A DNA stretch of 32,000 bases from Candidatus Scalindua sp. (GCA_031316235.1 JALDRA010000001.1:150001-182000); one strand, 5' to 3'. Counted from the first letter of the stretch, positions 2,710 through 25,441 are shown. The notes: generated from the sequence alone by a model not told the origin. Program-made: numbers and translations.

Positions 2710-2774
2710 TTAAGAGCGGTCAATCGATAACGTTATCATTAGCAGATTAAAGAGTCAGAAACGGAGAAGAAATT

Positions 2775-3983
2775 ATGAGTATACGATTATCTGGAATTTT
2801 ACTCGTGTTGTTGCTGCTTTTTTCTCAGATTTCATGCAAGAAACCAACAACGGGCGTGACAGGCACCGGGGAACATGGAGAACATGCTCACGAGGAGCAT
2901 AGCGAGGGAGAACATACCGGAGAGCAGAGAGTACAAATTTCTCCACAGGAAATGGAGGAGTTTGATGTAGAGGTGGCAGAAGCGCTTCCCGGCAAAATAC
3001 TTATCGACTTGCACTTGCCCGGTGAGGTTGTTTATGATCCAGCCAGGGTGGTGCACATTGTACCGAGAGTCCCGGGTATTGTAACAAAAGTGCACAAAGA
3101 AATTGGTGATCAGTTGAGGGAAGGAGAAGTCATGGCGGTCTTAGAAAGCAGAGAACTTGCATCCGCTAAGGCGAATTACCTTGCGGCCATTGAAATCCTT
3201 TCTCTGGCCGAGGCAACTTATAACCGTGAAAAAAAACTGTGGGATAAAAATATTTCCTCCGAACGCGAATATCTGGATGCCCAGACAAGGTTGGCAGAAG
3301 CCAGGATTCAGTTACATAAATCCCAACATCAACTCATGGCTCTTGGTTTCACGAAAGAATATGTAGATGAACTCAAGCACGGTTCAGAAGATATGTCACA
3401 CTTCGAAATAACATCACCGTTCAGTGGGGCCATTGTCGAAAAGCATATTACACTGGGTGAAAAAGTGGATGACCAAAACCCGGTGTTTACCGTTGCAGAT
3501 CTCAGTACTGTCTGGGTTTATTTGACGGTCTACCAGAAAGATCTGGAATCAGTTCGTGTTGGCCAAACTGTTACCATACGAGAGCAACAAGGCCTGCACA
3601 GCACTAAATCCAGGCTTGATTATATAACTCCCTTTGTGGAAGAATCCACACGTACCGCGACCGCCCGGGTGGTCCTGGATAATTCTAAAGGAGAGTGGCA
3701 TCCCGGTGCCTTCGTATCGGGTGAGGTTATTATCGATGAATTTGAAGTGAAAATTGCAGTGCCTCGTACCGCTTTGTTAGTCGTTCAGGAAAAAAATATT
3801 ATTTTTGTGAAGATCAAAGACGGGTTTGAACCTCGCCAGGTAACTCTAGGCAGAAAGAACGAAGCAAACCTGGAGATTTTATCAGGCCTGGACAGGGGTG
3901 AACAGTACATTAGCAGAGGAGGATTTACCCTCAAGTCAGAACTTGGAAGAAGCAGTCTTGAAGGAGGAGGACATGCACATTAA
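2775..3983 (+). CDS. Efflux RND periplasmic adaptor (MFP, CzcB/CusB-like) lipoprotein with His-rich N-terminal tract
   Basis: 402 aa. Lipobox-like FSQISC. GEHGEHAHEEHSEGEHTGE tract and C-terminal GGGHAH. HlyD/MFP core motifs (ITSPFSGAIVEKHITLGEKV, VFTVADLSTVWV). SD GGAGA. Confidence 0.9.
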   Translation: MSIRLSGILLVLLLLFSQISCKKPTTGVTGTGEHGEHAHEEHSEGEHTGEQRVQISPQEMEEFDVEVAEALPGKILIDLHLPGEVVYDPARVVHIVPRVPGIVTKVHKEIGDQLREGEVMAVLESRELASAKANYLAAIEILSLAEATYNREKKLWDKNISSEREYLDAQTRLAEARIQLHKSQHQLMALGFTKEYVDELKHGSEDMSHFEITSPFSGAIVEKHITLGEKVDDQNPVFTVADLSTVWVYLTVYQKDLESVRVGQTVTIREQQGLHSTKSRLDYITPFVEESTRTATARVVLDNSKGEWHPGAFVSGEVIIDEFEVKIAVPRTALLVVQEKNIIFVKIKDGFEPRQVTLGRKNEANLEILSGLDRGEQYISRGGFTLKSELGRSSLEGGGHAH

Positions 3984-4001
3984 AATATTTGGGAGATTAA
4001 C

Positions 4002-7000
4002 ATGGAAAGATTAATTGATTTTTCTCTCAGGAACCGGCTGTTGATGATTGTTCTTACAATAATAGTCATTGCCGGTGGATACTACAGTTACAGGAAGCTT
4101 CCCGTTGACGCCTTTCCGGACGTTTCTCCGAACCTGGTGCAGATATTTACAGTCACCGAAGGATTGGCTCCGCAGGAAGTAGAGAAATACGTTACCTTTC
4201 CTATTGAGATGGCCATGACCGGGCTGCCAGGGCTGGAGAAGATCAGGAGTGTTTCCAACTTTGGACTCTCCGTGGTGAATATCTATTTCGAAGATGGTAT
4301 GGACATCTATTTCTGCCGTCAGGTGGTCAACGAACGATTGCAGGAAGCCCGTGATCAGATCCCGGAAGGATTTGGTGAGCCGGGAATGGGCCCCATATCT
4401 ACAGGTATGGGACTGGTTCTCTTTTATTATCTCGAAGATACAACGGAAAAATACTCCCTTGAGGAACTCCGCACCATCCAGGACTGGGTAATCAAATTAA
4501 ACCTGCAGACCGTGCCCGGTGTAACGGAGGTGTTGGGTATTGGTGGATATGAAAGGCAATACCATGTCGTTGTTCAACCTGAAAGTTTGCTGCGCTATCA
4601 TGTCACTCTCCAGGAAATTGTAGAACGTGTAAAGGCTAATAATCTTAACGTTGGCGCACAATTCATCGAGAAAAATCGTGAAGAATTCATCGTACGTTCC
4701 GTGGGACTGGCTGATGGAATTGATGACCTTCAAAGAATTATTATTAAAACGGTAGATGGCCGTCCAGTATATCTCGATAGTATTGCCGATATACAGATCG
4801 GAGGAGCAGTTCGACGTGGTTTGCAGACGAGAAACGGGCAAGGGGAAGTGATCGCAGGCATGGTTATCAAGCTATTCGGAACAAATGCCTCGACCATTAT
4901 CGGACGTGTGGAAGAAAAGATAAAGGAGGTAAATAAAATCCTGCCTGATGGTATTCGAATTGTACCTTATTACCAGCAGAAAGATATCGTGGAGGCATCA
5001 GTCAGTACCGTGAGAAATGCCTTAATACAAGGCATTGTACTGGTAGCCCTGGTCTTGCTTGTTTTCATGGGTGGCTTTCGCCCCAGTCTCGTGGTTGCTA
5101 TGGCCATTCCCTTTTCCGTCATGTTTGCGTGTATTGCCATGTATTACTACAATCTTTCAGCAAACTTAATGTCTCTGGGAGGGCTGGCAATTGCCATTGG
5201 CATGATGGTGGATGGTACCATTGTTATGGTGGAAAATGTAGACAGGCTTCTTCGTGAAGCAGCTCCAGATGAGTCGAGGATACACGTGGTAGCCCGGGCG
5301 TGCAAAGAAGTTGCCCGCCCTATTACGTTTGCCATATGTATTATTGTCATAGTCTTTTTGCCCCTTTTCACTCTCCAGGGAGTTGAGGGTAAGACTTTCA
5401 AACCACTGGCTTATACTGTCTCCCTGGCAATGCTGGGTTCGCTGGTTTTTGCTATACTGATGGCTCCCCTCTTGAGCAGTTATTTAATGCGCAGGCCTGG
5501 ATCAAAGAAGGGCAAAAAGGAAGGGAGTGAATCATTCGTTGTAAAGATATTGCTGATCCCTTATCGGCCACTTGTCGTGTTTTTTGTTCAAAGACGCATC
5601 TATGCCATTATTCTGGCAGTGGTGCTCCTTTTACTTGGTGGTCTGGTTTACCCCAGGCTCGGTTCAGAATTCACCCCTAAACTCAAGGAAGGGACTGTGG
5701 TCGTACGTCTAACTATGGCCCCGTCAATCGCTTTGACAGAGAGTAAACGTATGACCATGGTAGTTGAACGTAAACTGCTCAACATACCGGAGGTCAGGGA
5801 GGTAGTCACTCGAATTGGGAGGGGTGAAGTGGGTGCACATTCAGATCCGATCAATTCCGCGGAAATCTATGTGCTTCTGAAGCCAGAAAAAGAGTGGCGG
5901 AGAAAAGGAGATCAGGAATATATCGAGGAACTCATCAGGGAAGAACTCGGGGTAATGCCGGGTATTCTGAGTAACCTGACTCAGCCGATCGAGATGACAG
6001 TGGATGAGTTGTTGGAAGGGGTAAGGGCCGAACTGTCTATTAAACTATTCGGGCGTGATCTCGACACATTGAAAAGCAAGGCCGATGAAATAGCCAGCGT
6101 GATACAAACTATTCGTGGAGCAGCAGATGTTCAGGCAGACCAGGTCAGCGGAAAACACCAGCTTCTCATTCGACCTAAACGTGAAGCTATCGCCCGCTAC
6201 GGCATTAATCTTGAAGATGTACAGAAGGTGATAAGGTCAGCCGTTGGTGGTGAAATTGCCGGTCAGATATTTGAGGGAATCCGTCGTTTTGGTATATTGG
6301 TACGCTACGAACCTGATGCACGACGCACACGTGAAGATATCGAAAACCTGTTGATCGAGGCTCCAGGTGGTACAGTCGTACCTCTGGTGGAATTGGCGGA
6401 GATACAGGAGATAGTGAGCCCACGCCAGATTATGCGGGAAGATACTCAAAGATTTATTACGGTCCAGTGTAATGTCGTGGGCAGGGATATCGGGTCATTT
6501 GTGGAAGAGTCACAACAGGCAATTGATGATACGGTGGATCTTCCACCCGGTTATCTCATGACATGGGGTGGGCAATTTCGGCTCCAGCAGGAGGCAAACA
6601 AACGATTTTCCGTGGTGATCCCGGCCACAATCCTTATCGTAAGCCTGTTATTATTCAGTAATTTTGGCTCACTCAAGAACACTCTGCTTATTCTTCTCAA
6701 TATTCCTCTGGCGCTGGTAGGAGGTATAATAGCTTTGTGGATAACAGGTCAGAACCTCTCCGTGCCGGCTTCAGTTGGTTTCATCGCGTTATTTGGAATT
6801 GCACTTGAAAACGGCATGGTGCTGCTGACTTATTTAAAACAACTCATCCGTGATGGTCTTTCAATAGATGAAGCCTCAATCAAGGGTGCATGCCTTCGAT
6901 TGCGCCCTGTTCTGATGACGGCGGTAACCACCGCATTGGGACTTATACCCCTACTCCTTGCATCAGGCACCGGCAGCGATGTGCAACGGCCGCTTGCCAC

Positions 7001-7130
7001 GGTAGTTGTCGGCGGATTGGTTACCTCTACAGTCTTGACACTCCTGGTTATACCAGCGCTTTTCAAATGGTTTTCTGTTCCGTTAGAGACAGAAATTTCG
7101 CATAATAATAAAATAATCAGGGAAGGTTAA
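4002..7130 (+). CDS. CusA/CzcA-family heavy-metal efflux RND pump 1
   Basis: 1042 aa, 12-TM RND layout. N-terminus MERLIDFSLRNRLL. TM4 signature AIGMMVDGTIVMVEN (5193-5237). C-terminal SDVQRPLATVVVGGLVTST. Confidence 0.93.
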   Translation: MERLIDFSLRNRLLMIVLTIIVIAGGYYSYRKLPVDAFPDVSPNLVQIFTVTEGLAPQEVEKYVTFPIEMAMTGLPGLEKIRSVSNFGLSVVNIYFEDGMDIYFCRQVVNERLQEARDQIPEGFGEPGMGPISTGMGLVLFYYLEDTTEKYSLEELRTIQDWVIKLNLQTVPGVTEVLGIGGYERQYHVVVQPESLLRYHVTLQEIVERVKANNLNVGAQFIEKNREEFIVRSVGLADGIDDLQRIIIKTVDGRPVYLDSIADIQIGGAVRRGLQTRNGQGEVIAGMVIKLFGTNASTIIGRVEEKIKEVNKILPDGIRIVPYYQQKDIVEASVSTVRNALIQGIVLVALVLLVFMGGFRPSLVVAMAIPFSVMFACIAMYYYNLSANLMSLGGLAIAIGMMVDGTIVMVENVDRLLREAAPDESRIHVVARACKEVARPITFAICIIVIVFLPLFTLQGVEGKTFKPLAYTVSLAMLGSLVFAILMAPLLSSYLMRRPGSKKGKKEGSESFVVKILLIPYRPLVVFFVQRRIYAIILAVVLLLLGGLVYPRLGSEFTPKLKEGTVVVRLTMAPSIALTESKRMTMVVERKLLNIPEVREVVTRIGRGEVGAHSDPINSAEIYVLLKPEKEWRRKGDQEYIEELIREELGVMPGILSNLTQPIEMTVDELLEGVRAELSIKLFGRDLDTLKSKADEIASVIQTIRGAADVQADQVSGKHQLLIRPKREAIARYGINLEDVQKVIRSAVGGEIAGQIFEGIRRFGILVRYEPDARRTREDIENLLIEAPGGTVVPLVELAEIQEIVSPRQIMREDTQRFITVQCNVVGRDIGSFVEESQQAIDDTVDLPPGYLMTWGGQFRLQQEANKRFSVVIPATILIVSLLLFSNFGSLKNTLLILLNIPLALVGGIIALWITGQNLSVPASVGFIALFGIALENGMVLLTYLKQLIRDGLSIDEASIKGACLRLRPVLMTAVTTALGLIPLLLASGTGSDVQRPLATVVVGGLVTSTVLTLLVIPALFKWFSVPLETEISHNNKIIREG

Positions 7131-7262
7131 ATTATGTAACGAGTTATTGATTACATTGATTAAGGGAAAGTGGTGTAAGTAGTAACGTATTCATTTAACT
7201 GTACACCTTCAAAGTCTGATCGATCTGCATGGTTAAAATTTATTCACACAGGTATTAATATA

Positions 7263-8663
7263 ATGGAAAAACAACAACGTATGATAAACCGGTTATTTCT
7301 GTTGTCAGGAATATTTTTTTCAGCATTTCTTTTTATTCAAATTATATGTATGAGCTGTTACGCAAATGAAGTTCATACCAAGCAGACGGAAAGTGTTGTT
7401 AGGGATGCAAATCGATTGTGGTGTAATGAACACGGTGTCTATGAAGACGAATGTTTTATTTGCCATCCTGAATTAAAATCCGATAACAGCGAAGTACCAT
7501 CAGTGGAACTTTATTGTGAAGAACACAGGGTACTGGAAAAAGAGTGCGGAATATGTCGCCCTGAGTTAACATCTTCACTTTTACCTGGCAAAGGTCTAAA
7601 GGTGAGACTGGAGTCTCCAGAGTCTGCGGCAAAAGCAGGTGTAGTCACTGCTTTTCCAGATGAAGATAAACACCCTGCCACTCATAGTGTTCTGTGTCAA
7701 GTTTCTTACAACATGAATTTTTTTGCCCGCATAACGCCTTTAACTTCAGGAGTTGTTCGGAGAGTCCTTGCAGATGTGGGTGCATATGTGTCTAAAGATG
7801 ATGTCCTGGTAGAGATTATCTCATCTGAAATTGCAAGCGCAAAAGTCGATTATTTAACTGCTCTGGTAAATGAAACATTAAAGGAGCTGGTTTATGAACG
7901 GGAAAAAGGGCTTTTTGAAAAAAAAATCTCTTCACAGCGTGAGTATCAGCAGGCACGGGCAGAATACCAGGTCGCTACACACACCACGAATACAAGACGT
8001 CAACAACTTCTCAATTACGGATTTACAGAAGCTGAAGTTAAAAAGATTGTTGAAACCCGTTCAAGCTCTTCTATTCTTCCTATCCGCGCTCCATTTTCAG
8101 GAACGATTATTGAGAGAAATGCCGTTCTGGGAGAAGCAGTTGAACTGGGCGACACTCTTTTTTCTCTGGCAGACCTGTCTACAATGTGGCTTGAGCTTTC
8201 TATTCCAGAATACCTGTTGTCTTTTTTCAGGGTGGGTAATACTGTCGAAGCAAATTTTCATAGTCTTCCCGGGAAAAGACTGCATGGGAACTTAATCTGG
8301 TTGGCATCTGGCATAGAAGAAAAAAGTCAGATGTTAAAGGGGCGTGCAATTGTGGAAAACCCGGAGTTTCTGCTAAAACACGGAATGTTTGGAAAAAGCT
8401 CACTCTTGTCTGAGCAGCCTGATAAAGGGCTGTATGTTCCTCTTGAGTCCATACAACGATTTGATAACAAGTCTTTCCTGTTTGTTAAGCTGTCAGACGA
8501 TCTTTACGAAATTCGCAGGGTTGTACCGGGTAGCAGAAACGATGATAAGATTGAAATTATTGAAGGAGTATCGCTTCATGAAAAGGTAGTTGTCGAAGGG
8601 AGTTTTACCTTGAAATCAGAATTCCTCAAATCTCGTCTTGGGGAGGGGTGTGTCGATGAATAA
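7263..8663 (+). CDS. Efflux RND periplasmic adaptor 2 with twin N-terminal C-x2-H-x6-C-x2-C modules
   Basis: 466 aa. TM/signal segment, then WCNEHGVYEDECFICHPEL and YCEEHRVLEKECGICRPEL, then the MFP core (IRAPFSGTIIERNAVLGEAV, LFSLADLSTMWL). Overlaps the next gene by 8 nt. Confidence 0.9.
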   Translation: MEKQQRMINRLFLLSGIFFSAFLFIQIICMSCYANEVHTKQTESVVRDANRLWCNEHGVYEDECFICHPELKSDNSEVPSVELYCEEHRVLEKECGICRPELTSSLLPGKGLKVRLESPESAAKAGVVTAFPDEDKHPATHSVLCQVSYNMNFFARITPLTSGVVRRVLADVGAYVSKDDVLVEIISSEIASAKVDYLTALVNETLKELVYEREKGLFEKKISSQREYQQARAEYQVATHTTNTRRQQLLNYGFTEAEVKKIVETRSSSSILPIRAPFSGTIIERNAVLGEAVELGDTLFSLADLSTMWLELSIPEYLLSFFRVGNTVEANFHSLPGKRLHGNLIWLASGIEEKSQMLKGRAIVENPEFLLKHGMFGKSSLLSEQPDKGLYVPLESIQRFDNKSFLFVKLSDDLYEIRRVVPGSRNDDKIEIIEGVSLHEKVVVEGSFTLKSEFLKSRLGEGCVDE

Positions 8664-11600
8664 AATCATTGAATTCTCTCTGAAAAACAGGCTGGTTATC
8701 CTGATACTATTTGCCGTATTTATTGGTATTAGCGTTCGTGCTGTCATGCACATACCCATAGACGCATTTCCCGACACCACCCCTGTACAGGTTCAGATTA
8801 ATACCGTTGCGTCTAATCTTAATCCCTCGGAGATAGAACAACAAATAACACTGCCAATTGAACTCTCCATATCTGGTTTTTCAGGTCTTATTAACGTGCG
8901 CTCCATATCAAAGTTTGGTCTATCTCAGGTTATTGCAACGTTTGATGACAACACCAACATTTACGATGCTCGTCAATTCATTATAGAACGACTTATAAGT
9001 GTTGATCTGCCTGAAGATATAGATCGACCGCAATTGGGTCCTATCTCCACCGGTCTTGGAGAGGTTTTCCATTATATTCTACGATCTTCAAATCCTGATC
9101 GGACACTTGATGAACTCAGAACCATTCATGACTGGATTATAAAACCAGAACTTCGCAAGGTGTCCGGGGTGGCTGAAGTTAATTCGTGGGGCGGTTTTGA
9201 ACGTCAATACCAGGTAATCGTCTCGCCCGAGTCCCTGGTAAAATACACTTTGACGCTGAACAAGGTATTTGAAACGCTTGCCCAGAATAATCAGAATGTG
9301 GGTGGTGGACGAGTCGTATCAGCAGGGCAATCTCTGCTTGTGCATGGACTGGGCCGTGTCAGCACAATTGAACAGCTAGAAAACATAGTACTGAAGGCCC
9401 ACAAAGGCGCTCCCGTTTATATCAAGGATGTTGCTGATGTGGTAATAGGACACGAAATCCGTCGAGGAGCAGTAACTTCCGGTGGGCAAGGAGAGGTTGT
9501 TCTGGGCCTTGGTTTTGCCTTAATGGGTGAAAATAGCAAAAAGGTAACTGAAGGGTTGAAAAAGAGTCTTGATGTTGTTCGTAAATTCTTACCCGATGAT
9601 GTAGAGGTGGAAATTGTTTACGACCGCACTGATCTTATAACTAAGGTAATCAATACGGTAAAGCATAATTTAGTTTACGGGGCAATACTTGTAGTTCTCG
9701 TATTATTCCTGATATTGGGCAATTTACGAGCTGGGTTACTTGTCGCAATTGCAATTCCAATTTCAATGCTTTTTGCTATTTTCGGTATGTATGAATTTTC
9801 TATAGCTGCCAGTCTATTAAGCATGGGGGCTATTGACTTTGGTATTATTGTAGACGGATCTGTGGTAATGACAGAAATAAATATGCGAAAACTAAACGAC
9901 AGGCAGCGGCATTTAGGAAGACCATTGACAAATACGGAACGTCTGCAGAGCATATCTGAATCCAGTAAAGAGGTTATCCGTCCCATTATTTTCGGCATGG
10001 GTATTATCATAATTGTCTTTCTCCCTATCCTGGCACTGGAAGATATTGAAGGAAAGATGTTCAGACCAATGGCATGGACATTTATCTATGCAATGATTGG
10101 GGCGCTGACAATTGCCCTATTACTTTCGCCCATATTGTCTTATTATTTTTTACCAGGAAAAAGAAGAGAAAAAGAAGGTTTTATAGAACGCATCATAAAA
10201 GGAGGATACACAACTTCACTTTCACTGATACTCCGATGGAAATACACACTATTTGGTATTGTGTTTTTTCTCCTATTAGGGACGATCATTATCGCAACCA
10301 GGCTGGGAGGTGAATTTATACCAAAACTTAAAGAAGGTTCCATCGTCATTAACACCATACGCCTGGCAGGAGTATCAATTGAGGAAGCAGTTGCCTACAA
10401 CTCCCGCATTGAGAAACTCCTGCTTGGTCTCTTTCCAGACGAAATCAAAAACATCTGGAGTCGGGTAGGAACAGCTGAAGTTGCCACAGATCCTATGGGT
10501 ATAGAACTGACAGATATTTTTATCACACTGAATACCAGAGACCAGTGGAAACAAGCGAGAACGCAGGCTGAACTAATCAAGCAAATGGAAGAAGAACTTG
10601 AAGACTTGCCCGGTGTAAACATGATCTTTACCCAACCCATTGAAATGCGCTTGAATGAGATGGTTACCGGCATCAGATCAGACGTGGGTATTAAGATTTA
10701 TGGTGACAACTTTGAAGAACTGGTTCGTCTCAGCAATAGGGCACAGGAAATTCTCAAGAGCGTCAAAGGCGTTTCAGATATTGCCGGAGAGCAGATTACA
10801 GGGCAACCTACCCTTCAAGTAATTGTGAACCAGGATCAGATTGCAAGATACGGCATCACGGCAAGTAACGTGCTTAATCTCGTCAAAACGGTTGGCGCTC
10901 ATCAGGTAGGCGACATCTTTGAAGGGCAGAGGAGTTTTCCGCTTGTAGTCAGGTTACCCGAAAAACAACGTACCGATGTAGATGCTCTGGCTAAAACACT
11001 CATTCCAACTGAATCAGGACAAATTTTGCCGCTTCGTAATTTAGCTGAAGTCAGGGAAACAGAAGGTTATTCAACTATAAATCGGGAATGGGGACGTCGT
11101 TTAATAAAGATACAATGCAATGTCAGGGACAGGGATATAGCCTCTTTTGTGCAGGAAGCACAAACTCGCATTGAGAACGAAATGAGTCTGCCTGACGGAT
11201 ATGTAATCGAATGGGGAGGTCAATTTGAACATCTGAAACGTTCCAAAATACGTTTTATGATTGTTGTGCCCATAGCGCTTTTACTAATATTTTTAATGCT
11301 GTACTTCAGCCTGAAAAACCTTGTTGATGTATTCATTATTTATACAGGTATTCCATTTGCGTTTATAGGAGGTGTTTCTGCTCTATGGGGACGAGGCATG
11401 CCTTTAAGTGTAAGCGCTGCTATTGGGTTTATAGCCCTCAGTGGTATTGCTGTTCTTAATGGTCAGATTCTGGTATCTACTATCAGAGTGCTAAGGAAGG
11501 AAGGTCTTGTTTTTGGTGAAGCTGTCAAGGCAGCAGCCAATCAACGTTTGCTTCCTGTAATGGCAACTGCAATCACTGATGCTGTAGGATTTATACCAAT

Positions 11601-11802
11601 GGCTATTTCAACCAGTGTTGGAGCCGAAGTTCAGCGACCGCTTGCTACCGTGGTAATTGGTGGTGTAACTACTTCTACTCTGCTAACCTTATTTGTACTT
11701 CCAGCACTGTATCTCACCATGGGAAAGAAAATGGCGAAAACCAGCAATAAAAGTGTCCCCAGGCCAAATCCTGAGAAAAGTGTCAGGCATGACGCAATAT
11801 AG
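8656..11802 (+). CDS. CzcA-type heavy-metal efflux RND pump 2
   Basis: Start moved to ATG 8656 (MNKIIEFSLKNRL, matching the other pump N-termini; ATGA-type overlap with the adaptor stop). TM4 signature DFGIIVDGSVVMTEIN (9835-9882) keeps the D/D/E triad of CzcA. Confidence 0.92.
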   Translation: MNKIIEFSLKNRLVILILFAVFIGISVRAVMHIPIDAFPDTTPVQVQINTVASNLNPSEIEQQITLPIELSISGFSGLINVRSISKFGLSQVIATFDDNTNIYDARQFIIERLISVDLPEDIDRPQLGPISTGLGEVFHYILRSSNPDRTLDELRTIHDWIIKPELRKVSGVAEVNSWGGFERQYQVIVSPESLVKYTLTLNKVFETLAQNNQNVGGGRVVSAGQSLLVHGLGRVSTIEQLENIVLKAHKGAPVYIKDVADVVIGHEIRRGAVTSGGQGEVVLGLGFALMGENSKKVTEGLKKSLDVVRKFLPDDVEVEIVYDRTDLITKVINTVKHNLVYGAILVVLVLFLILGNLRAGLLVAIAIPISMLFAIFGMYEFSIAASLLSMGAIDFGIIVDGSVVMTEINMRKLNDRQRHLGRPLTNTERLQSISESSKEVIRPIIFGMGIIIIVFLPILALEDIEGKMFRPMAWTFIYAMIGALTIALLLSPILSYYFLPGKRREKEGFIERIIKGGYTTSLSLILRWKYTLFGIVFFLLLGTIIIATRLGGEFIPKLKEGSIVINTIRLAGVSIEEAVAYNSRIEKLLLGLFPDEIKNIWSRVGTAEVATDPMGIELTDIFITLNTRDQWKQARTQAELIKQMEEELEDLPGVNMIFTQPIEMRLNEMVTGIRSDVGIKIYGDNFEELVRLSNRAQEILKSVKGVSDIAGEQITGQPTLQVIVNQDQIARYGITASNVLNLVKTVGAHQVGDIFEGQRSFPLVVRLPEKQRTDVDALAKTLIPTESGQILPLRNLAEVRETEGYSTINREWGRRLIKIQCNVRDRDIASFVQEAQTRIENEMSLPDGYVIEWGGQFEHLKRSKIRFMIVVPIALLLIFLMLYFSLKNLVDVFIIYTGIPFAFIGGVSALWGRGMPLSVSAAIGFIALSGIAVLNGQILVSTIRVLRKEGLVFGEAVKAAANQRLLPVMATAITDAVGFIPMAISTSVGAEVQRPLATVVIGGVTTSTLLTLFVLPALYLTMGKKMAKTSNKSVPRPNPEKSVRHDAI

Positions 11803-14598: not shown

Positions 14599-17538
14599 TT
14601 ACGGGTATTTCTCAATGCTTTTGGTCAATTCATGGGCAATGTTTCCGCTTACAAGACGCATGATACTCTCTTCCGCCGTTCCAAAACTTAATAAGTTTAT
14701 GCTTCCATACCAGACTATTTTCTGATCAATAATCGCGAATTTCTGATGAATATTTGACTTAAAGAGAACATTAATTCCCGTTTCCTTCAAGGCATTAAAT
14801 ATCTGTACCAGGTGTGATCTCCTGGTATCTTTAAAATCTTCAGCAGGCCTTGTCATTACTGTTACTTTCACTTTATTTTTTAAGATAGTGTGGAAGTATT
14901 GCATCATTCGAGGAACACGCCGGTTTGTTACAAATGGGCTGACAATCAATACCTCTCTGGCTGCGTTAACGATATCGCTGGTATAAACAGGGAAAAAGCT
15001 GTGTTTATCAAAAATAATCTCAGTAGGTATCTCAGTAACAATTTCTCCCTTTGCCCTATAACCGATAGATGCATAGCCTCCTAACCTTCTTCCATACATT
15101 TTCTCAAGTATTCTTACCTGAATATCCACATAGTCGTATATCCGTATTTCATTTTTATTTTCATATACTCTATGCAGTCTTCCGGCGTACTGCTGCAATG
15201 TGCCTTTCCAGGAAACAGGCATGGCTAAAAATAAAGTATCAAGGCGAGGCTCATCAAATCCTTCGCCAACATATTTACCGGTAGCAACCAAAGTCAATGG
15301 CTTATTTGCAGGTGTTGCAGATATTCTTTCAAATATCTCTCTCGTCTCTTTAACGCCCATACTTCCCACTAATGCTATTACATCCGGTATTCTCTCCCTG
15401 AGTTTATTTGTAAGGGATTTAACATGTGCAGTCCTTTCTGTTAAAATGAGAGAGTTCCTGCCGTTTTCATAACAACTTACAACATCATCCACGATTACCT
15501 GATTGCGTATTTCGTCTTCTATTAATTCCGAATAGATTTCTTGAATAGTTAACTCTTTTTCATTTTTGCCGGCTGAAATTCTAAAATATGAAAACCTCGG
15601 TATGACATAGTGGTCAAAAGGCATCTTTTCCGCCTGTTTTTTTGCATCGACTGTGAACCTTATCGGACCACAATATAAAAAAATAATCGGATGGTGTCCA
15701 TCCTGCCTTTCCGGTGTTGCCGTTAAGCCGTATATAAATTTTGCATTTGATTCTTTTACTATTTGTTCAAACCTAAAAGCTGGAATATGGTGACACTCAT
15801 CAACAATAATCATGCCATATTTCTTGACACTTTCCTTTACTTCACCTGCCGTATTTAATGATTGCATAATTGCAACATCAATGATGCCACTCAACCGGTC
15901 TTTTCCCGCTCCTAATTGTCCAATCAGACTTTGTTTCCTTTTTCTCCCTCGCTTTTCAGGCTGTTCCGGAAGCTGTTCATTAATAATCAAAAATTCTGAT
16001 AACCTGGTCATCCATTGTGATAGTAATTGTTGCCTATGCACCAGTATTAATGTGCTTACTTTGCGTTCAGCGATCAAACTTGCTCCAACAACTGTTTTTC
16101 CAAAAGCTGTTGTAGCGGATAACACCCCATTTTCATAACGTATTAATTCATCTACTGCACTGCGCTGTTCGTCTCTGAGCGCTCCATTAAATTCAACATC
16201 TATGGCCTTGCCATGATTTGTTTCATCAATCCAATTAGCATCTACATTATATTCATTTAAAAGATTACGGACATCGTCTTCACACCCTCGCGGCAAACAT
16301 AGGTACTTCTCTAAATCATCAGAACACGATATTACTCTTGGCTTGTTATAAGTAGGCATTCTCATCGCTTGAGATTTATAAAAGTCAGGATTTCTAAAAG
16401 CAGCTAATCGTTTTAAAGCATTTAACGCCCTGGAAGAAAATCCGGTTTTCCAGATATAGTGCATACCGGATTTAACTATTTTGACATTATCGGGAACATC
16501 TTCTTTCCGCAGTTTGACAGGAGTTGGTACCCATGGCGTATCTACCTCGACATCATCTTTTTTTAATGTACCCAATTCATTACCAGCACAAAGCCTGGTA
16601 ATTAAACAGGTCAAGTTCGTCTCGGAAAGCCTTTGAATACCAGCCAGAAATTCCCACTGATCTGCGTATGGGTCAAATTTTCCATCTACAAAGACACTAT
16701 TCCCATTTTGCCTTGCTGACATTTGAAGTGGCAGCGCTATTAAATTTCCAAATCCCCCTTTTGGCATAGTATCTTGATTAGGAAAAAATCGATCATAGGA
16801 CTTAAATGAAATTGCATGCCTCTTATTCATTGAATATGTCAGTAAAGATGTCCCGAATTTTCTGACAAGCGCCGCCGATACCCTATCCTCGAAGAAAAAC
16901 CAGGCATGTGCTCCATCACCTGATCTTGAACGCTCGACAGCAATAGGGATTTCAAATTTCCTACAGACATCACGTATAACAGAAACATCTTTTCCCCATT
17001 CATCATCGTCAAAATCAATCACTAAAAAAAAACAGGTTTCATCAGGAAACATCGGATAAATGCCAATAACAGATTTACCTCTAAGATGTTCTTCAACGGT
17101 ATTCACGTTTAATTGAGCATATAATTTCTGTGTGCATTTGGAGCATTTGATTTTTGGCTTTGCACAGACTCCCGGTTTCCACTCATTCAAACACACAGGA
17201 GAATATCCAGACACGCCTTTTTTATCTTGCCATCTTTTCGCATATACATCTTCCCTGCCCTTAAAAAGAGACATAAAAAGAATTATTTTATTTTTTGTGT
17301 CAGAAAAATTATTAAGAGGTTCAGCCTCAGCCTCTGTTTCTATAGATTCAATTCTGGGTATATTCTCACAGATATCCATGCTTGTTTCCTCAAAAGGTAG
17401 ATCTTCTACCGAGGTTGATTCCACCTGCAAAATACCGCTATTGAACTCAAGCATATTTATTTTATCTCTAAGTTTCGTGTTCTCTTCAAGTAGCGACTGA
17501 TATCTTCTGTATAATTCTTTGTAGCTGAATTTTTTCAT
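14599..17538 (-). CDS. Fusion protein: AEP/prim-pol-like domain + SF2 (DEAD/DEAH-type) helicase + C-terminal PLD/HKD nuclease domain
   Basis: 979 aa. AEP-like motifs VIDFDDDE, SRSGDGAHAWFFF, GGFGNLIALPLQ (aa 86-272). Helicase motifs AFGKT, DECHH, LTATPER, QYAGRLHR (aa 452-815). HKD motif HQKFAIIDQKIVWYGSINLL (aa 931-950). Confidence 0.85.
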   Translation of the reverse strand: MKKFSYKELYRRYQSLLEENTKLRDKINMLEFNSGILQVESTSVEDLPFEETSMDICENIPRIESIETEAEAEPLNNFSDTKNKIILFMSLFKGREDVYAKRWQDKKGVSGYSPVCLNEWKPGVCAKPKIKCSKCTQKLYAQLNVNTVEEHLRGKSVIGIYPMFPDETCFFLVIDFDDDEWGKDVSVIRDVCRKFEIPIAVERSRSGDGAHAWFFFEDRVSAALVRKFGTSLLTYSMNKRHAISFKSYDRFFPNQDTMPKGGFGNLIALPLQMSARQNGNSVFVDGKFDPYADQWEFLAGIQRLSETNLTCLITRLCAGNELGTLKKDDVEVDTPWVPTPVKLRKEDVPDNVKIVKSGMHYIWKTGFSSRALNALKRLAAFRNPDFYKSQAMRMPTYNKPRVISCSDDLEKYLCLPRGCEDDVRNLLNEYNVDANWIDETNHGKAIDVEFNGALRDEQRSAVDELIRYENGVLSATTAFGKTVVGASLIAERKVSTLILVHRQQLLSQWMTRLSEFLIINEQLPEQPEKRGRKRKQSLIGQLGAGKDRLSGIIDVAIMQSLNTAGEVKESVKKYGMIIVDECHHIPAFRFEQIVKESNAKFIYGLTATPERQDGHHPIIFLYCGPIRFTVDAKKQAEKMPFDHYVIPRFSYFRISAGKNEKELTIQEIYSELIEDEIRNQVIVDDVVSCYENGRNSLILTERTAHVKSLTNKLRERIPDVIALVGSMGVKETREIFERISATPANKPLTLVATGKYVGEGFDEPRLDTLFLAMPVSWKGTLQQYAGRLHRVYENKNEIRIYDYVDIQVRILEKMYGRRLGGYASIGYRAKGEIVTEIPTEIIFDKHSFFPVYTSDIVNAAREVLIVSPFVTNRRVPRMMQYFHTILKNKVKVTVMTRPAEDFKDTRRSHLVQIFNALKETGINVLFKSNIHQKFAIIDQKIVWYGSINLLSFGTAEESIMRLVSGNIAHELTKSIEKYP

Positions 17539-19062: not shown

Positions 19063-19178
19063 TTGATTGTATGATAATATTATAATATAGTCAAGTTTGT
19101 CTTTAACGCTTCAGTTTTTTGCGGCAAATAGTAGTTCGCACGTAATACTCAGGTGTTATTTCATTACGCGTCCAAAGT

Positions 19179-19233
19179 TATACTCATCTCATAATGATTT
19201 TCGGATAAAATCCGAGATAAAATTAAGCGAGTA
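19179..19233 (-). repeat. Repeat family copy C: module M2 in inverted orientation
   Basis: TATACTCATCTCATAATGATTTTCGGATAAAATCCGAGATAAAATTAAGCGAGTA; 4 mismatches to copy A and ~6/54 to the reverse complement of M2 in copy D. Confidence 0.85.
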
Positions 19234-19261
19234 TATTAAGAAAAATCAGGGAGACAAAGCG

Positions 19262-19927
19262 ATGAGTTTTAATCGCAAGCAACATTGGGAAAATGCCTAT
19301 GGCCAGAAAAATCCGGTTGAAGTCAGCTGGTATCAGGTTGAACCTACCGTATCGCTGAAGTTTATCGCTTCAACTGAAATAGACCATGCAGCGAAAATCA
19401 TTGATGTCGGAGGCGGCGCATCTGTTCTTGTGGATAAATTATTAGATCAGGGATTTGAGAATTTAACTGTTCTCGATATTTCATCAAAAGCGATTCATTA
19501 TGCTCAAGCGAGGCTGGACAAGCGTGCTGAAAACGTAAGTTGGTTTGAGGCTGATGTAACAGAGTTTGAATCTTCAGTCCAATACGACTTCTGGCACGAT
19601 CGTGCAGTTTTTCATTTTCTTACTGATGCAGAAGATAGAACTAAGTATGTGCGAAGGTTGGAAGATGCGGTAAAACCTGGGGGGCATGTTGTCATCGCAG
19701 CCTTTGACATTGATGGCCCTTCTCAATGCAGCGGTCTTGATGTCGAACGATACAGCCCGGAGAAAATGAAAAACGAGCTTGGTGATTCTTTTGAGCTCGT
19801 CAATAGCGTTAGCGAAGCACATATAACACCCTGGAATAAACAACAGAAGTTCATTTACTGTTTTTTCAAGAAGATGTTAAATGATAGAGTTGAGAAGAGT
19901 CCTGAGTGTGATTCCCGAGATAAGTAG
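19262..19927 (+). CDS. Class I SAM-dependent methyltransferase (small, ~221 aa)
   Basis: Start moved from TTG 19097 (which would translate the repeat) to ATG 19262, which has SD GGGAGA. MSFNRKQHWENAYG...SWYQ, SAM motif IIDVGGGASVLV, post-I LDIS. Confidence 0.8.
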   Translation: MSFNRKQHWENAYGQKNPVEVSWYQVEPTVSLKFIASTEIDHAAKIIDVGGGASVLVDKLLDQGFENLTVLDISSKAIHYAQARLDKRAENVSWFEADVTEFESSVQYDFWHDRAVFHFLTDAEDRTKYVRRLEDAVKPGGHVVIAAFDIDGPSQCSGLDVERYSPEKMKNELGDSFELVNSVSEAHITPWNKQQKFIYCFFKKMLNDRVEKSPECDSRDK

Positions 19928-20003: not shown

Positions 20004-20115
20004 TATACTAAAACCGATTTGGTTTTCGATTTTACCGGAAACCAAATCTTGGTGAAGGTATACTCGCTCAATTTTATCTCGGATGTTGTCCGAAATCCAG
20101 TATGAGATGAGTATA
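20004..20115 (+). repeat. Repeat family copy D: modules M1+M2 (short form, no insert)
   Basis: 112 bp. M1 stem GATTTGGTTT (20016-20025) / AAACCAAATC (20039-20048). M2 spans 20062-20115, with the palindrome degraded to TCGGATGTTGTCCGA. Confidence 0.9.
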
Positions 20116-21843: not shown

Positions 21844-23136
21844 ATGAACGTGATGAAAATTTTATCTAGTAGCACATTTATTCTCGCAGTCTGTTATTTT
21901 ACGATATGTTCCAATAAGGCCCTGTTGGTGTCTCATGCACAGGAATCAAATACAAAGACTGAATATCTGACACTGGAAGATGCTGTTGAGATTGCCATTA
22001 ATAATAATCCCTTAATAAAGTCTAAAAAACATACTATGGGTACTTATGAAGGGAGAATAAAACAGGCAGGTCTGCTGCCAAACCCTAAGATTTTATTCTT
22101 CACACAGGAAATACAAACTAATGATGTAGGTTTTGATCAGAGTCAGAACTCTGTTGACGTAATCCAGAAACTAGAGACAGGAGGAAAGAGAAAACTGAGA
22201 GTTAGAGCAGCCGAAAAAGAAAAAAAGGTAATGGAATTTGATCTTCTCACTACAATAGCTGATATTACGGCAAACGTCAAAAAATCTTTCTTCAACGTGC
22301 TTACCAAACAGGATGAATTGAAATTTGCAGAAGAAACCTTGGTGATTGCTAAGAGTTTGATGTCTATTGCAAGTGAAAGATTTGAATCTGGAGACATAGC
22401 AAAGATTGAAGTTATCAAAGCTAAAATAGAATTGTCCAATGCTAAAATGAGGGTACAGGATGTTGAAAGGAAACATCTTAATTCGGTAAAAATGCTCAAG
22501 ACAGTCATGGGTGTACCAAACATTGTATTGCATAACCTGTCACCAATCTCAACTGCTGATACACCGTCACTAAATATGGACAAACTAAATGATCTGCTTT
22601 TAAACCGCCATCCCGCACTGAAAGCCCGGAAGAAAGCTGTGGATCTCTCACTCATAAAGATTACCGAGGCAAAGAGAATGGCCATCCCTGACATTAACGC
22701 GACTATTGGATACAAGAGGCTGACTGAAATAGACGTCAATACTATTCAGGCAGGAATAGAGTTTCCGTTACCAATTTTCAACAGAAATCAGGGCAAGATC
22801 ATTGAAGCCAGGGCATTTTCATTTAAGGCAAAAGACGATGTAGAGGTTGTCAGGAATCAATTACTACTTCAGTTGAACAATGCATTTAATTTATATATTT
22901 CTACCCGTGAACAGGTTAGTTTCTACGAAGACAGCATACTGCCACAGGCAGAAGAATCCCTGAAGATTGCAAGACAGGGATATAAGCAAGGTGAATTTGA
23001 TTATCTTGAGGTCCTGGATGCCCAACGAACGTTAGCAAACACAAGGATTTCATATTTGAAGATTTCAAATGAGTTTTTTTCTTCGATAACGGAAATAGAA
23101 AAGCTTGTTGGAGTGAAGATCTCTGATATTAAATAA
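21844..23136 (+). CDS. TolC-family outer membrane efflux protein, cluster 3
   Basis: 430 aa, signal sequence. LTLEDAVEIAINNNPLIKS and ...LDAQRTLANTRISYLKISNEFFSSITEIEKL are OMF repeat hallmarks. SD GAGAGG. Confidence 0.85.
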   Translation: MNVMKILSSSTFILAVCYFTICSNKALLVSHAQESNTKTEYLTLEDAVEIAINNNPLIKSKKHTMGTYEGRIKQAGLLPNPKILFFTQEIQTNDVGFDQSQNSVDVIQKLETGGKRKLRVRAAEKEKKVMEFDLLTTIADITANVKKSFFNVLTKQDELKFAEETLVIAKSLMSIASERFESGDIAKIEVIKAKIELSNAKMRVQDVERKHLNSVKMLKTVMGVPNIVLHNLSPISTADTPSLNMDKLNDLLLNRHPALKARKKAVDLSLIKITEAKRMAIPDINATIGYKRLTEIDVNTIQAGIEFPLPIFNRNQGKIIEARAFSFKAKDDVEVVRNQLLLQLNNAFNLYISTREQVSFYEDSILPQAEESLKIARQGYKQGEFDYLEVLDAQRTLANTRISYLKISNEFFSSITEIEKLVGVKISDIK

Positions 23137-23198
23137 TTCATGTTCAGCGCTGAAAATCACTGTACAATTAAGAACATTTTTTGCATAAGGATATTTAT

Positions 23199-24821
23199 AT
23201 GACAGGAGCATCTCTCTTTTATCAGCTCTGTAGAGTTAAACATTTGTATTTTCGTAAGCAAATTTTTGATCATGTAAAATCATCCGTGGTGAACAACGCA
23301 GTTATTTTATTCGTCACCGTTGCAGGTTTATTAGGAAGTTGTAACAGTGACATCCATAAACACGCTAATACCGAAAACGGGTATCCACACGCAGATGAAA
23401 TACATACCGGTGGAGCGGTCGAACCTCTTTCCTACACCCTTTACACGGATAAAGCAGAACTGTTTGTAGAGTTTAAACCTTTGATTGCAGGAGAAGTCTC
23501 AAAATTAGCTGCCCATTTTACCCAATTAGGAGAAAACTTCAAAGCCGTTACCGATGGCTTGGTAACGGTAAGCCTGATCGGAAGCAAGGAACAATTAATT
23601 GATAAAGCCGAACAACCATCATCTCCAGGGATATTTCGACTGGCTTTAAAACCAGAAATACCTGGTACCTATCAGTTGATTTTCGACATTCAGGCCAGAG
23701 AATTCTCTGACACAATCACGATAGATGACATGACTGTGTATCCTGACACAAAAACTGTTTTGGCAAATGAACGAGAACAAACAACCGGTGAAGAAATTGT
23801 TTATACAAAGGAACAGGCATGGAGGGTAGAGTTTGCCAACAGGGAAGTACAAAGACAGCCCTTTACTGAAATCATAAAAACTACGGGACAAATCGTACCT
23901 GCCCATGGAGACGAGACAACCATAACAGCAACAAGCAAAGGCATCATAACATTTGAAAACACTAAAATACTGTCCGGCTCTGCGGTAAATGAAGGCGAAA
24001 CCATATTTATAATATCAGGAGCCGGCCTGACAGAAGGCAATCTGGACGCAAAATACAAAGAAGCAGAAAACAACTATGAAAAAAGCAAAATAGATTTTGA
24101 AAGAGCCGAAGGTCTGGTAAAAAATAATATCATTTCACAGAAACATTTCCAGGAAATAGAACTTCGATACAAAAACGCTCAATCAACTTTTCATACTATT
24201 GAAAGAAATTATACTGCCGGTGGGCACCAAATCACATCACCAGTTGACGGGTTTATAAAAAATGTGATGGTACGAGAAGGAGAGTATGTTGAAATCGGCC
24301 AGTCGATCGCCAGCATCTCCCAAAACCGTAAACTCATCCTAAAAGCCGAAGTGCCTCAAAGGTATTTCTCAAAACTCAAGAGCATATCATCGGCGAATTT
24401 CATAACCGCTTACGACAGTAAAGTATACAGCACTGACAGCTTGAATGGCAGGCTCATCTCATATGGAAAAAGCGTAGAAAGTAACGCCTATTATATTCCG
24501 GTAAATTTTGAGATCAGTAATAATGGAGAAATCATTCCCGGTTCTTTTGTAGAAGTGATGCTAAAAACAAACGTTATTAAAGAAGCTTTGGTAATACCGT
24601 ACTCGGCACTTCTGGAAGAACAGGGCAATTATTTCGCCTATGTGCAGACATCAGGCGAAAGGTTCCAGAAGCGTGAATTAAAAATCGGCGCCAGTGATGG
24701 TATGAATGTACAGGTATCAGCAGGTATAAAGGAAGGTGAAAGAGTTGTCATGAAAGGTGGCTACCAGATAAAACTGGCAACAATGTCAGGTAAAATGCCT
24801 GCTCACGGGCACGAACATTAA
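23199..24821 (+). CDS. Efflux RND periplasmic adaptor 3 (lipoprotein) with ~150-aa extra N-terminal beta-rich domain
   Basis: Lipobox LLGSC. N-domain ...LYTDKAELFVEFKPLIAGE...GIFRLALKPEIPGTYQLIFDIQ. MFP core ITSPVDGFIKNVMVREGEYV. C-terminal MPAHGHEH. Start uncertain (ATG 23199, or an internal GTG near 23286). Confidence 0.85.
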   Translation: MTGASLFYQLCRVKHLYFRKQIFDHVKSSVVNNAVILFVTVAGLLGSCNSDIHKHANTENGYPHADEIHTGGAVEPLSYTLYTDKAELFVEFKPLIAGEVSKLAAHFTQLGENFKAVTDGLVTVSLIGSKEQLIDKAEQPSSPGIFRLALKPEIPGTYQLIFDIQAREFSDTITIDDMTVYPDTKTVLANEREQTTGEEIVYTKEQAWRVEFANREVQRQPFTEIIKTTGQIVPAHGDETTITATSKGIITFENTKILSGSAVNEGETIFIISGAGLTEGNLDAKYKEAENNYEKSKIDFERAEGLVKNNIISQKHFQEIELRYKNAQSTFHTIERNYTAGGHQITSPVDGFIKNVMVREGEYVEIGQSIASISQNRKLILKAEVPQRYFSKLKSISSANFITAYDSKVYSTDSLNGRLISYGKSVESNAYYIPVNFEISNNGEIIPGSFVEVMLKTNVIKEALVIPYSALLEEQGNYFAYVQTSGERFQKRELKIGASDGMNVQVSAGIKEGERVVMKGGYQIKLATMSGKMPAHGHEH

Positions 24822-25182
24822 GGAAATGTTAAATTTTAGATTTTGCATTTTAAATTAAGGATAACAACAATCAAAAAAGACAATATCATACTTGAGAAAT
24901 CCTTTGATTTTGCTTTAAGCATTATTGAGCTGTATAAGAATATGACTGAACAAAAGGAATATATTCTGTCGAAACAGATTCTCCGAAGTGGAACGAGCTG
25001 TAAGGAAATGTTAAATTTTAGATTTTGCATTTTAAATTAAGGATAATAACAATCAAAAAGGACAATATCATACTTGAGAAATCCTTTGATTTTGCTTTAA
25101 GCATTATTGAGCTGTATAAGAATATGACTGAACAAAAAGAATATATTCTGTCGAAACAAATTCTCCGAAGTGGAACGAGCAT
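24819..25182 (+). repeat. Two-copy 182-bp tandem direct duplication (24819-25000 / 25001-25182)
   Basis: The copies differ by 4 substitutions. The unit starts at the adaptor stop codon and covers the 5' part of the four-helix-bundle gene. The first copy yields a truncated ORF ending ...SGTSCKEMLNFRFCILN*. Confidence 0.92.
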
Positions 25183-25405
25183 TGGGGCAAATGTTGAGGA
25201 GGCTATTGCTGCGCATTCCAGAAAAGATTTTGCAGCTAAAATGATAATTGCCTCCAAAGAAGCAAGAGAAACTCGCTATTGGTTAAGGTTACTCCAAAAG
25301 AGCCAGCTGGTCAAATTAGAATTTACAATTCAATTAAATGATATTGAAACTATAATCAACATTATTACCGCTATTGTTAAAACTACTCAATCAAATTCTA
25401 AATAA
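25025..25405 (+). CDS. Four-helix-bundle protein (23S rRNA intervening-sequence protein family)
   Basis: ...KDNIILEKSFDFALSIIELYKNM..EYILSKQILRSGTSIGANVEEAIAAHSRKDFAAKMIIASKEARETRYWLRLL is the family signature. No in-frame ATG before MTEQ; a TTG start at 25025 is assumed. Confidence 0.8.
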   Translation: MHFKLRIITIKKDNIILEKSFDFALSIIELYKNMTEQKEYILSKQILRSGTSIGANVEEAIAAHSRKDFAAKMIIASKEARETRYWLRLLQKSQLVKLEFTIQLNDIETIINIITAIVKTTQSNSK

Positions 25406-25441
25406 TTTAACATATAAAATTCATCATTTAAAATTTCTATC

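Follow-up and report, generated by a model that had tools for sequence, protein, structure and literature searches.

A candidate anti-invader protein of Candidatus Scalindua combining a primase-polymerase domain, an SF2 motor and a PLD-family domain

We analysed a stretch of 32,000 nucleotides from Candidatus Scalindua sp. (GCA_031316235.1, JALDRA010000001.1:150001-182000; hereafter the window), in which an original prediction, made from the sequence, had picked out a 979-aa fusion of an archaeo-eukaryotic primase (AEP)-like domain, a superfamily 2 (SF2) helicase and a nuclease of the phospholipase D (PLD) family as a candidate single-protein conflict or defence system. The open reading frame (ORF) exists at the predicted place, begins with ATG and lies on the minus strand, the plus-strand translation of the same interval being full of stops. 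Every motif that had been quoted for it is found in this frame, and Pfam matches to each segment bear out the reading as three domains. We also identified two conserved modules that the original prediction lacks, an N-terminal helix (aa 6-33) and a domain that precedes the motor (aa ~345-450). The features of the gene are collected in Table 1.

Table 1. Features of the AEP-SF2-PLD gene, in coordinates of the window, with the basis of each assignment.
Feature	Position	Strand	Basis
Whole ORF, AEP Prim-Pol + SF2 motor + PLD fusion	14599..17538	-	979 aa plus stop
N-terminal helix aa 4-33, heptad pattern, predicted dimerising leucine-zipper-like coil	17440..17529	-	Predicted structure, conservation
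Variable acidic linker aa 34-79, predicted disordered	17302..17439	-	pLDDT <50 (aa 35-71), no conservation
AEP primase-polymerase domain aa 80-320, CAPP-like	16579..17301	-	Pfam, PADLOC, PDB sequence search, Foldseek
Cys4 cluster C116/C125/C132/C135, predicted zinc ribbon within AEP domain	17134..17193	-	Conservation, CAPP alignment
Conserved alpha/beta domain aa ~345-450 before motor	16189..16506	-	pLDDT 82-92, invariant residues
SF2 helicase/translocase aa 452-825	15064..16185	-	Pfam ResIII + Helicase_C, PDB, Foldseek
PLD-family domain, single HKD motif, aa 841-976	14611..15018	-	Pfam PLDc_2, PADLOC profiles

The Pfam matches are far beyond chance. AEP-TOTE (PF22548) covers aa 84-310 at E=6.9e-101 (337 bits against a cut-off of 27) and is matched from position 2 to 228 of its 230 positions; ResIII (aa 453-611, E=7e-23) and Helicase_C (aa 687-791) cover the motor, and PLDc_2 (aa 854-976, E=1e-10) the C-terminus. 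PF22548 is also the 'conflict-system AEP' label that the original prediction had mentioned, and it is a real database entry. Among PADLOC profiles, 'PrimPol, CAS-associated' (PDLC01465) was matched at E=1e-89, together with PbeA-type helicases, while NCBIfam gave sub-threshold matches only, to CRISPR-associated Prim-Pol, XPB, RadD, DrmC and NucT. The AlphaFold model of the whole protein has a mean predicted local distance difference test score (pLDDT) of 77, and a model of aa 75-452 reaches 81.6; in these models the chain resolves into seven segments, namely the helix, the acidic linker, the AEP domain, a short linker, the alpha/beta domain, the two-lobed motor and a flexible linker with the PLD domain.

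In alignments of 118-119 homologues, from which all residue conservation reported here is taken (invariant motif residues being counted in 118), motif I of the AEP domain (D175-F176-D177, whose aspartates had been numbered D174 and D176) and motif II (S204, S206, G207, G209 and H211) are invariant. So is D249, a candidate for motif III by position and conservation only. By motifs I-III and by its AEP fold, the domain belongs to the Prim-Pol clade. A sequence search of the PDB matched the CRISPR-associated Prim-Pol CAPP (7nqd, E=5.6e-13), and the structural match that had been set as a check alongside the AEP profile was obtained with Foldseek, which ranked CAPP first (7p9j, 7nqf and 7nqd; E~1e-13, TM-score 0.75-0.78 on the target, 25% identity), then Prim-PolC, then the LigD PolDom, with replicative enzymes as distant matches (NrS-1 at E~6e-3, pRN1 at E~0.2). 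With its Prim-Pol motifs intact, the domain is a candidate primase/polymerase with predicted priming activity. The four cysteines C116, C125, C132 and C135 are all invariant; the original prediction had placed them ahead of the AEP domain, but they lie inside it, in an insertion of ~38 residues that the CAPP Prim-Pol structure lacks, and this segment probably binds zinc.

The motor carries motifs I, II (DExH), III and VI and two RecA lobes, as do SF2 enzymes of the XPB/Rad25-UvsW type, with G480-K481-T482, D580-E-C-H-H584, T606-A607-T608 and Q783..G786-R787..R790 invariant. Its best PDB match by sequence is XPBII (6p4f, E=5.7e-18), with Rad25 (2fwr) and UvsW also recovered, and by structure T4 UvsW (2oca, E=4.5e-18) and the archaeal XPB-Bax1 complex (6p4o, E=2.7e-17; XPB matches range from ~1e-16 to 1e-17), with the XPB of TFIIH and RadD at the next ranks. 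The motor is an XPB/UvsW-type SF2 translocase and not a hexameric replicative helicase. Enzymes of the XPB/UvsW/RadD type open DNA or remodel its branches and are not hexameric replicative helicases. In the domain that precedes the motor, L372, N373, R377, F381, N383, Q390, C405, P416 and G418 are invariant; a sequence search of the PDB gave no match for it. The Foldseek alignments of the motor to archaeal XPB extend over ~500 columns, on targets of ~440 residues and given without residue ranges, and at this length should take in the preceding domain, which we tentatively regard as the likely counterpart of the DNA-structure-recognition domains at the N-termini of XPB and UvsW.

The PLD domain has one HKD motif per chain, of the form HxK(x)4D(x)6GSxN. 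Conservation of the HKD residues had been set as a check, and H931, K933, D938, G945 and S946 are indeed invariant, with N948 conserved in at least 90% of the homologues. The nearest profiles are those of nucleases (MkoC, DrmC and NucT), PADLOC giving the PLD region of MkoC from Mokosh type II at E=1.4e-12 and DrmC at E=1e-5; by sequence, the PDB yielded marginal matches only (FAM83B and MitoPLD/Zucchini, 4ggj). Single-HKD PLD enzymes need two chains for each active site, as established for Nuc and BfiI. The domain is a predicted nuclease that would contribute a half-site per chain, for which dimerisation is plausible given a conserved zipper. This putative zipper is the N-terminal helix (pLDDT ~85), where L9, Y13, L16, N20, L23, I27 and L30 follow the strict 3-4 spacing of a heptad pattern. 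Conservation reaches at least 90% at L9, K12, Y13, E19 and N20, of which N20 is nearly invariant, and L23 does not vary at all; weak Pfam matches to HALZ/bZIP fall on the same helix, and a shorter version with the pattern L..EN..L is present in nuclease-less relatives. We infer that the helix forms a dimeric leucine zipper through which the protein pairs.

NCBI already has a protein with 100% identity to it, from a metagenome-assembled genome (MAG) of Candidatus Scalindua sp., and the protein shares its domain set with more than 8000 database proteins at ~60-67% identity, from Planctomycetota, Desulfobacterota, Bacillota, Bacteroidota and other phyla. A relative is encoded in at least 596 GTDB species genomes, and a search of 1.84 billion representatives with the AEP domain returned 7581 cluster representatives; the 150 matches listed held no new architectures, all being members of the same family or fragments. 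Some homologues already bear the name 'TOTE conflict system archaeo-eukaryotic primase domain-containing protein'. Novelty is much lower than the original prediction implied, as the family is catalogued and very common; it is widespread and experimentally uncharacterised, and the window protein is an ordinary member with an architecture that is not new. Literature searches for 'TOTE conflict', 'AEP-TOTE' and PF22548 gave no match.

The C-terminus of this AEP-SF2 core is variable: it is the PLD domain, a DUF559/MTES_1575 domain (a Vsr-like PD-(D/E)xK nuclease), or nothing at all, in proteins of 785-870 aa. Cultured hosts with a PLD form include Desulfofarcimen acetoxidans and Desulforapulum autotrophicum. 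Degradation of invading nucleic acid, a part of the mechanism originally proposed, thus cannot account in full for the conserved core of a family in which many members are nuclease-less and others carry the DUF559/Vsr-like domain. Since so many relatives do without a nuclease, the conserved activity would couple the opening of DNA to priming or synthesis, with the nuclease as an exchangeable add-on. At one locus (L036, 9464-12763), an ORF of 1100 aa places a GNAT acetyltransferase domain in frame and N-terminal to the AEP-SF2-PLD protein, which may be a real fusion or read-through of two genes.

In four anammox genomes, the gene stands in as many unrelated settings: a metal-resistance region (the window and closely related samples), a TopoVI/MurL/LexA/DinB neighbourhood in S. 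japonica, an XhoI restriction-modification pair with an Opp transporter in S. rubra, and metabolic genes in a Brocadiaceae MAG. Clustering of the neighbours at 80 related loci gave no conserved partner, the best cluster occurring at 9 of the 80, in agreement with the original prediction, which had seen no recombinase, toxin or methylase partner beside the ORF. The toxin-antitoxin genes AbiEi/AbiEii lie no more than 2 kb away in 13 of the 65 loci with enough upstream sequence; at ~9 loci (~15%) the pair is found directly upstream and on the strand of the AEP-SF2 gene, the gap being -27 to +67 bp. Such adjacency recurs in six or more phyla and with every C-terminal variant (AbiEi-AbiEii directly upstream at L016, L018, L024, L054, L064, L069 and L077; nearby at L012, L020, L057, L063, L065 and L072). 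AbiEi-AbiEii and AEP-SF2 look like a recurrent three-gene cassette rather than a chance co-location on islands. The protein, originally described as self-contained, is thus not so at every locus.

Further recurrent neighbours are DUF4143 ATPases assigned to PADLOC PDC-S01, SLFN_AlbA_2, MNT nucleotidyltransferases, HipA, JetD and RhuM, along with DNA methylases, restriction genes of the type I, XhoI and XamI kinds, genes of HNH and Fic-like proteins, and both integrases and transposases; PADLOC candidate systems are also present among them. At L086 (14038-16459), L099 (14409-16099) and two further loci, in genomes that are not related, genes for a LexA/S24 peptidase and a Y-family polymerase (IMS) lie a few kilobases away, a proximity that could reflect either a link to DNA damage or shared cargo of mobile elements. 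At L101 (14299-18955), a PLD-form homologue adjoins a metal cluster (zf-HC2 anti-sigma, Metal_resist, sigma-70, OEP and CzcB-like genes) and its start is overlapped by 4 bp by a Fic-like_C gene, making this a second case of a metal island. The identity of a CRISPR-associated Prim-Pol was considered and rejected, there being no cas genes or array in the window and no cas family that recurs in the census.

The AEP-SF2 architecture was not found in the phage genomes searched, where only the helicase part has matches (D10/T5-type helicases, ~26% identity), and a phage origin was rejected on this ground. The nuclease-less core is present on 119 PLSDB plasmids at ~44% identity, 50 of them conjugative. 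Sampled plasmid copies adjoin a Tn3-like remnant, recombinase trios or genes of leading-region type (ArdC-like, DUF736, strawberry notch and ParB) and lie outside RepA/RepABC modules. The original prediction had held that this does not look like a replication architecture and had named homologues in plasmid or phage replication modules as what would refute it; neither the phage search nor the sampled plasmids placed any there, and the motor is of the SF2 type. For the same reasons (a motor that is SF2 and not SF3, MCM or DnaB, no phage copy, and plasmid copies outside rep modules) the identity of a replicative primase-helicase was rejected. On the Yoonia plasmid pSMR4r-1 (L084, 5209-15796) and an R. 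etli plasmid (L085, 7836-14232), the nuclease-less AEP-SF2 gene is accompanied by three tandem tyrosine recombinases. In the former, a strawberry-notch gene is apparently split into an N-terminal and a C-terminal part by an insertion of ~6.4 kb that consists of exactly the AEP-SF2 gene and the three recombinases, which suggests that the gene is carried by a recombinase-in-trio element.

In E. coli, DNA of an enterobacterial homologue is matched in 1836 of 5426 complete genomes, or about a third; in 684 of these, O157:H7 included, the copy is near full-length and encodes 786 aa with no nuclease, and ~1150 others keep only a 5' stub of 229-349 nt. Over 757 residues, identity between the E. coli and the window protein is 43%; the homologue of O157:H7 is WP_000233452.1. 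The E. coli gene is found on an integrase-borne island beside ycdU, directly after HTH, DUF3987-YfjI and YfjJ (Gp2-type) genes. Across the loci L091, L092, L093, L094 and L096, the content of the slot after YfjJ differs between strains. O157:H7 and others have the AEP-SF2 gene there; strain N1083 has the 5' stub and, behind it, Mokosh type I as a complete system (MkoA E=0, MkoB E=1.9e-151), and CP4-57 of K-12 has abpB-abpA (named 'anti-bacteriophage protein') with rnlAB. AbpAB is a phage defence system (PMC10732053). That the gene has its slot in common with two known defence systems speaks more strongly for a role in defence than any other single argument. Where other short matches were sampled, they proved to be decayed stubs within pathogenicity islands. 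That every stub marks a cassette replacement was accordingly rejected, as sampling gave one Mokosh case but also plain decayed stubs, and the number of stubs is to be read as erosion rather than as cassette exchange in every case. Neither the slot nor the gene is mentioned in the E. coli defence-island paper PMC10121019.

We hypothesize, with a probability of about 0.6, that the AEP-TOTE, SF2 and nuclease fusion is a solitary, horizontally mobile protein that acts alone against foreign DNA of phages or plasmids. A defence role is favoured by the lack of a fixed partner, the unrelated contexts among close relatives, the AbiE adjacency, the swapping of nucleases, the slot held in common with AbpAB, RnlAB and Mokosh, and the absence from phages and replication modules. 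Several observations weigh on the other side. The neighbours in the window are metal-resistance and not defence genes, and a scan of the window found no tRNA, integrase, transposase or repeats that bracket the gene. Nuclease-less members are common, so that DNA cutting cannot be the core function, and it is not evident why immunity would need a primase-polymerase. The neighbours appear enriched in defence, toxin-antitoxin and mobile-element genes, as judged from counts and not against a formal background. Genes of UmuDC/DinB and LexA/S24 type near the gene at several loci fit a role in repair, as does the part that the Prim-Pol of DRT7 plays in damage tolerance, and the E. coli gene always follows the YfjJ/Gp2-like gene, so that it could belong to the replication backbone of the island itself. 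The literature search found no phenotype, mechanism or biochemical study for any family member.

If the protein acts against invaders, two copies would pair through the N-terminal zipper and join their half-site HKD domains into one nuclease centre, a dimer suggested by the need of single-HKD PLD enzymes for two chains together with the conserved zipper. The XPB/UvsW-like motor and its recognition domain would then load on branched, bubble or single-strand/double-strand junction DNA of the invader, such as replication or entry intermediates, and, to judge from the closest structures, would open or translocate along this DNA with ATP. The CAPP-like Prim-Pol, aided by the zinc ribbon, may prime and copy the exposed single strand, and the PLD centre would presumably cut the DNA. 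Our confidence in this order of steps is much lower than in the anti-invader role. Prim-Pol domains of the CAPP type have precedents in immunity, in the association of CAPP with Cas1-Cas2 (PMC8211822) and in DRT7/PPRT, which has a role in damage tolerance as well (PMC12439943). A bolder variant, which we think unlikely, makes template-dependent DNA synthesis by the Prim-Pol the immune step itself: the enzyme would prime on the replication or entry intermediates, and the new strand would mark the DNA for the fused nuclease or one of the host, or block the replisome of the invader.

An alternative, which we also consider unlikely, is an enzyme of DNA-damage tolerance or break repair that resides on mobile islands, in which the motor opens damaged or stalled DNA, like XPB with its nuclease partner Bax1, the Prim-Pol primes anew, fills gaps or joins at microhomologies in the manner of Pol theta or AgaPP, and the PLD domain trims ends. 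The closest structures of the motor are the repair factors XPB-Bax1, UvsW and RadD, and the matches of the AEP domain after CAPP are the repair polymerases Prim-PolC and LigD PolDom. Translesion synthesis and microhomology-mediated end joining are both described for a pair of PrimPol and helicase (PMC11724360), and the Prim-Pol of DRT7 bypasses 8-oxo-G (PMC12439943). The setting of the gene could be read in the same way, with genes for LexA/S24 and a Y-family polymerase close by in S. japonica, D. autotrophicum and two more loci, and with metal stress behind an ArsR regulator in the window and one other locus. UmuDC-like genes, however, are themselves common cargo of mobile elements. Moreover, a repair enzyme accords poorly with the patchy, laterally transferred distribution and frequent pseudogenisation in E. 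coli, with the operon-like link to AbiE and the restriction-modification and other defence neighbours, and with the slot common to Mokosh and AbpAB; no ligase or Ku partner appeared in the neighbour census.

The gene might instead serve the replication or establishment of its carrier element, priming the complementary strand of an excised island or of an incoming conjugative strand, which we regard as quite improbable. CAPP homologues of the non-CRISPR kind that have a helicase typically reside on mobile and transposable elements (PMC8211822), and the plasmid-borne nuclease-less form, with its conjugative carriers, leading-region-type genes and adjoining recombinase trios, would suit such a function, as would the place of the E. 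coli gene directly after DUF3987/YfjI and a Gp2-type gene that resembles rolling-circle initiators. Yet this backbone of the E. coli island is also present in CP4-57 of K-12, where the gene is missing, and the window and most chromosomal loci have no adjoining integrase, rep or transfer genes. The motor is of a non-replicative SF2 type, a fused PLD or Vsr-like nuclease would be unexpected in a replicase, and the family is absent from phages, with plasmid copies outside RepA/RepABC modules.

TOTE systems are predicted conflict systems defined by 'TPR, OB, TBP, Effector' components (Aravind, Iyer and Burroughs 2022, as presented in PMC12458937). The window protein has what an effector of this kind requires, namely AEP, SF2 and PLD domains with intact motifs, and the missing partner genes make it a solitary protein of effector type rather than a complete TOTE system. 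A further reading makes it the effector subunit in a TOTE system of several genes, with the TPR-OB and TBP sensor genes at another place in the genome. Nothing supports this reading except the name of the Pfam/NCBI domain family and the TOTE definition as PMC12458937 gives it, and we hold it to be very improbable, as the 32-kb window has no TPR, CSD/OB or TBP gene, none of these recurs among the top 25 families listed from 291 neighbours (+/-3 genes, 58 loci), and the 80 loci have no conserved neighbour cluster, the gene moving alone between genomes.

The surroundings of the gene in the window are a dense metal-resistance region. Upstream are ArsR and a methyltransferase of class I that carries an Rv2258c-like winged helix-turn-helix (55-bp gap, same strand), and downstream a CCDC90-like/DUF1640 gene and YnfA, the same ArsR-methyltransferase pair and DUF1640/ynfA that the original prediction had named on either side. 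No terminator was found between the methyltransferase and the AEP-SF2-PLD gene, so that the two might be co-transcribed from the promoter region of arsR. Over the 32 kb there was no Rfam match and no CRISPR-like array; promoter-like sites are no commoner than in shuffles, and terminator-like sites are slightly above them (8 versus 4.8 +/- 2.0).

Three efflux operons of the resistance-nodulation-division (RND) type, with OEP, HlyD/CusB-like and AcrB/CzcA-like components, occupy 1429-11802 and 21844-28564, and the region also has ArsR, two methyltransferases of small-molecule type, a YHS protein (30246-30575) and a P-type ATPase represented by its C-terminal part (31211-31891). Within the third efflux operon, a gene for a '23S rRNA intervening sequence protein' (25025-25405) lies between the membrane-fusion and RND pump genes, and a 182-bp tandem duplication (24819-25180; 2.0 copies, 97% matches) runs across its start. 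The second methyltransferase gene (ORF 19097-19927) is divergent from arsR and bracketed by a 57-nt inverted repeat (19179-19235 and 20059-20115, 89% complementary), for which a paired regulatory site and the termini of a small mobile cassette are two possible readings. On the minus strand at 29087-29656, adjoining the YHS protein, is a 189-aa protein with a hydrophobic N-terminus, ~8 CxxC pairs of zinc-ribbon-like appearance and weak Pfam matches only, which is possibly metal-binding.

If DNA synthesis by the Prim-Pol were itself the immune step, the protein would represent a 'prime-to-restrict' immunity carried by a single polypeptide and distinct from restriction, CRISPR, reverse transcriptase (RT)-based and signalling systems. 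Were DNA synthesis to help in stopping invaders, this would be a new principle in bacterial immunity and would shed light on the CRISPR-associated Prim-Pols and DRT7. The family is among the most widespread predicted defence proteins without a phenotype or mechanism, and unusual among them for its intact primase-polymerase. With natural copies in E. coli, and with a slot common to Mokosh and AbpAB, the question lends itself to inexpensive tests.

Among known systems, the CAPP of Marinitoga (7NQD, 7NQF and 7P9J) is the closest solved relative of the AEP domain by both sequence and fold and has the same catalytic motifs. It differs in having no Cys4 insertion, in carrying TPR and PriCT regions in place of the SF2 motor and PLD domain, and in its association with cas genes and CRISPR. 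Among CAPP_A homologues outside CRISPR, a Prim-Pol with a helicase is the commonest architecture (Zabrady et al. 2021, PMC8211822). With the TOTE systems as defined in PMC12458937, the window protein has in common a full-length match to the Pfam model named after them, both being predictions, whereas the defining TPR-CSD and TBP partners are absent from the window and not recurrent at the 58 loci. DRT7/UG10 (PPRT) of E. coli is likewise a single large polypeptide, with a Prim-Pol that its authors compare with CAPP and a reported function in phage defence besides its second role in damage tolerance (PMC12439943). It has an RT-like domain and a long helical C-terminus with neither helicase nor nuclease, and none of the DRT profiles of PADLOC was matched by the window protein.

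XPB-Bax1 and T4 UvsW provide the best matches to the motor, and XPB works with a nuclease at an opened bubble or fork, a parallel to the joining of motor and nuclease in the window protein; these are, however, repair and recombination factors without a polymerase, at 17-20% identity, and Bax1 is not a PLD protein. Mokosh type II (MkoC) and DISARM (DrmC) resemble the window protein in the PLD region and, more generally, in the use of a helicase and a PLD nuclease in phage defence. Mokosh differs in having no AEP domain and in its helicases, which are SF1 Upf1-like RNA helicases; only the PLD region of the MkoC profile is matched (aa 857-958 against profile positions 1002-1112 of 1136), and identity with Mokosh was rejected for this reason. 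Finally, pRN1 ORF904, NrS-1 PrimPol, P4 alpha and BcMCM likewise join an N-terminal AEP to an NTP-driven motor, but theirs are the hexameric SF3 or MCM helicases that replicative primase-helicases of plasmids and phages use, and they carry no nuclease, whereas the window protein couples its Prim-Pol to an SF2 motor of XPB/UvsW type and a predicted PLD nuclease.

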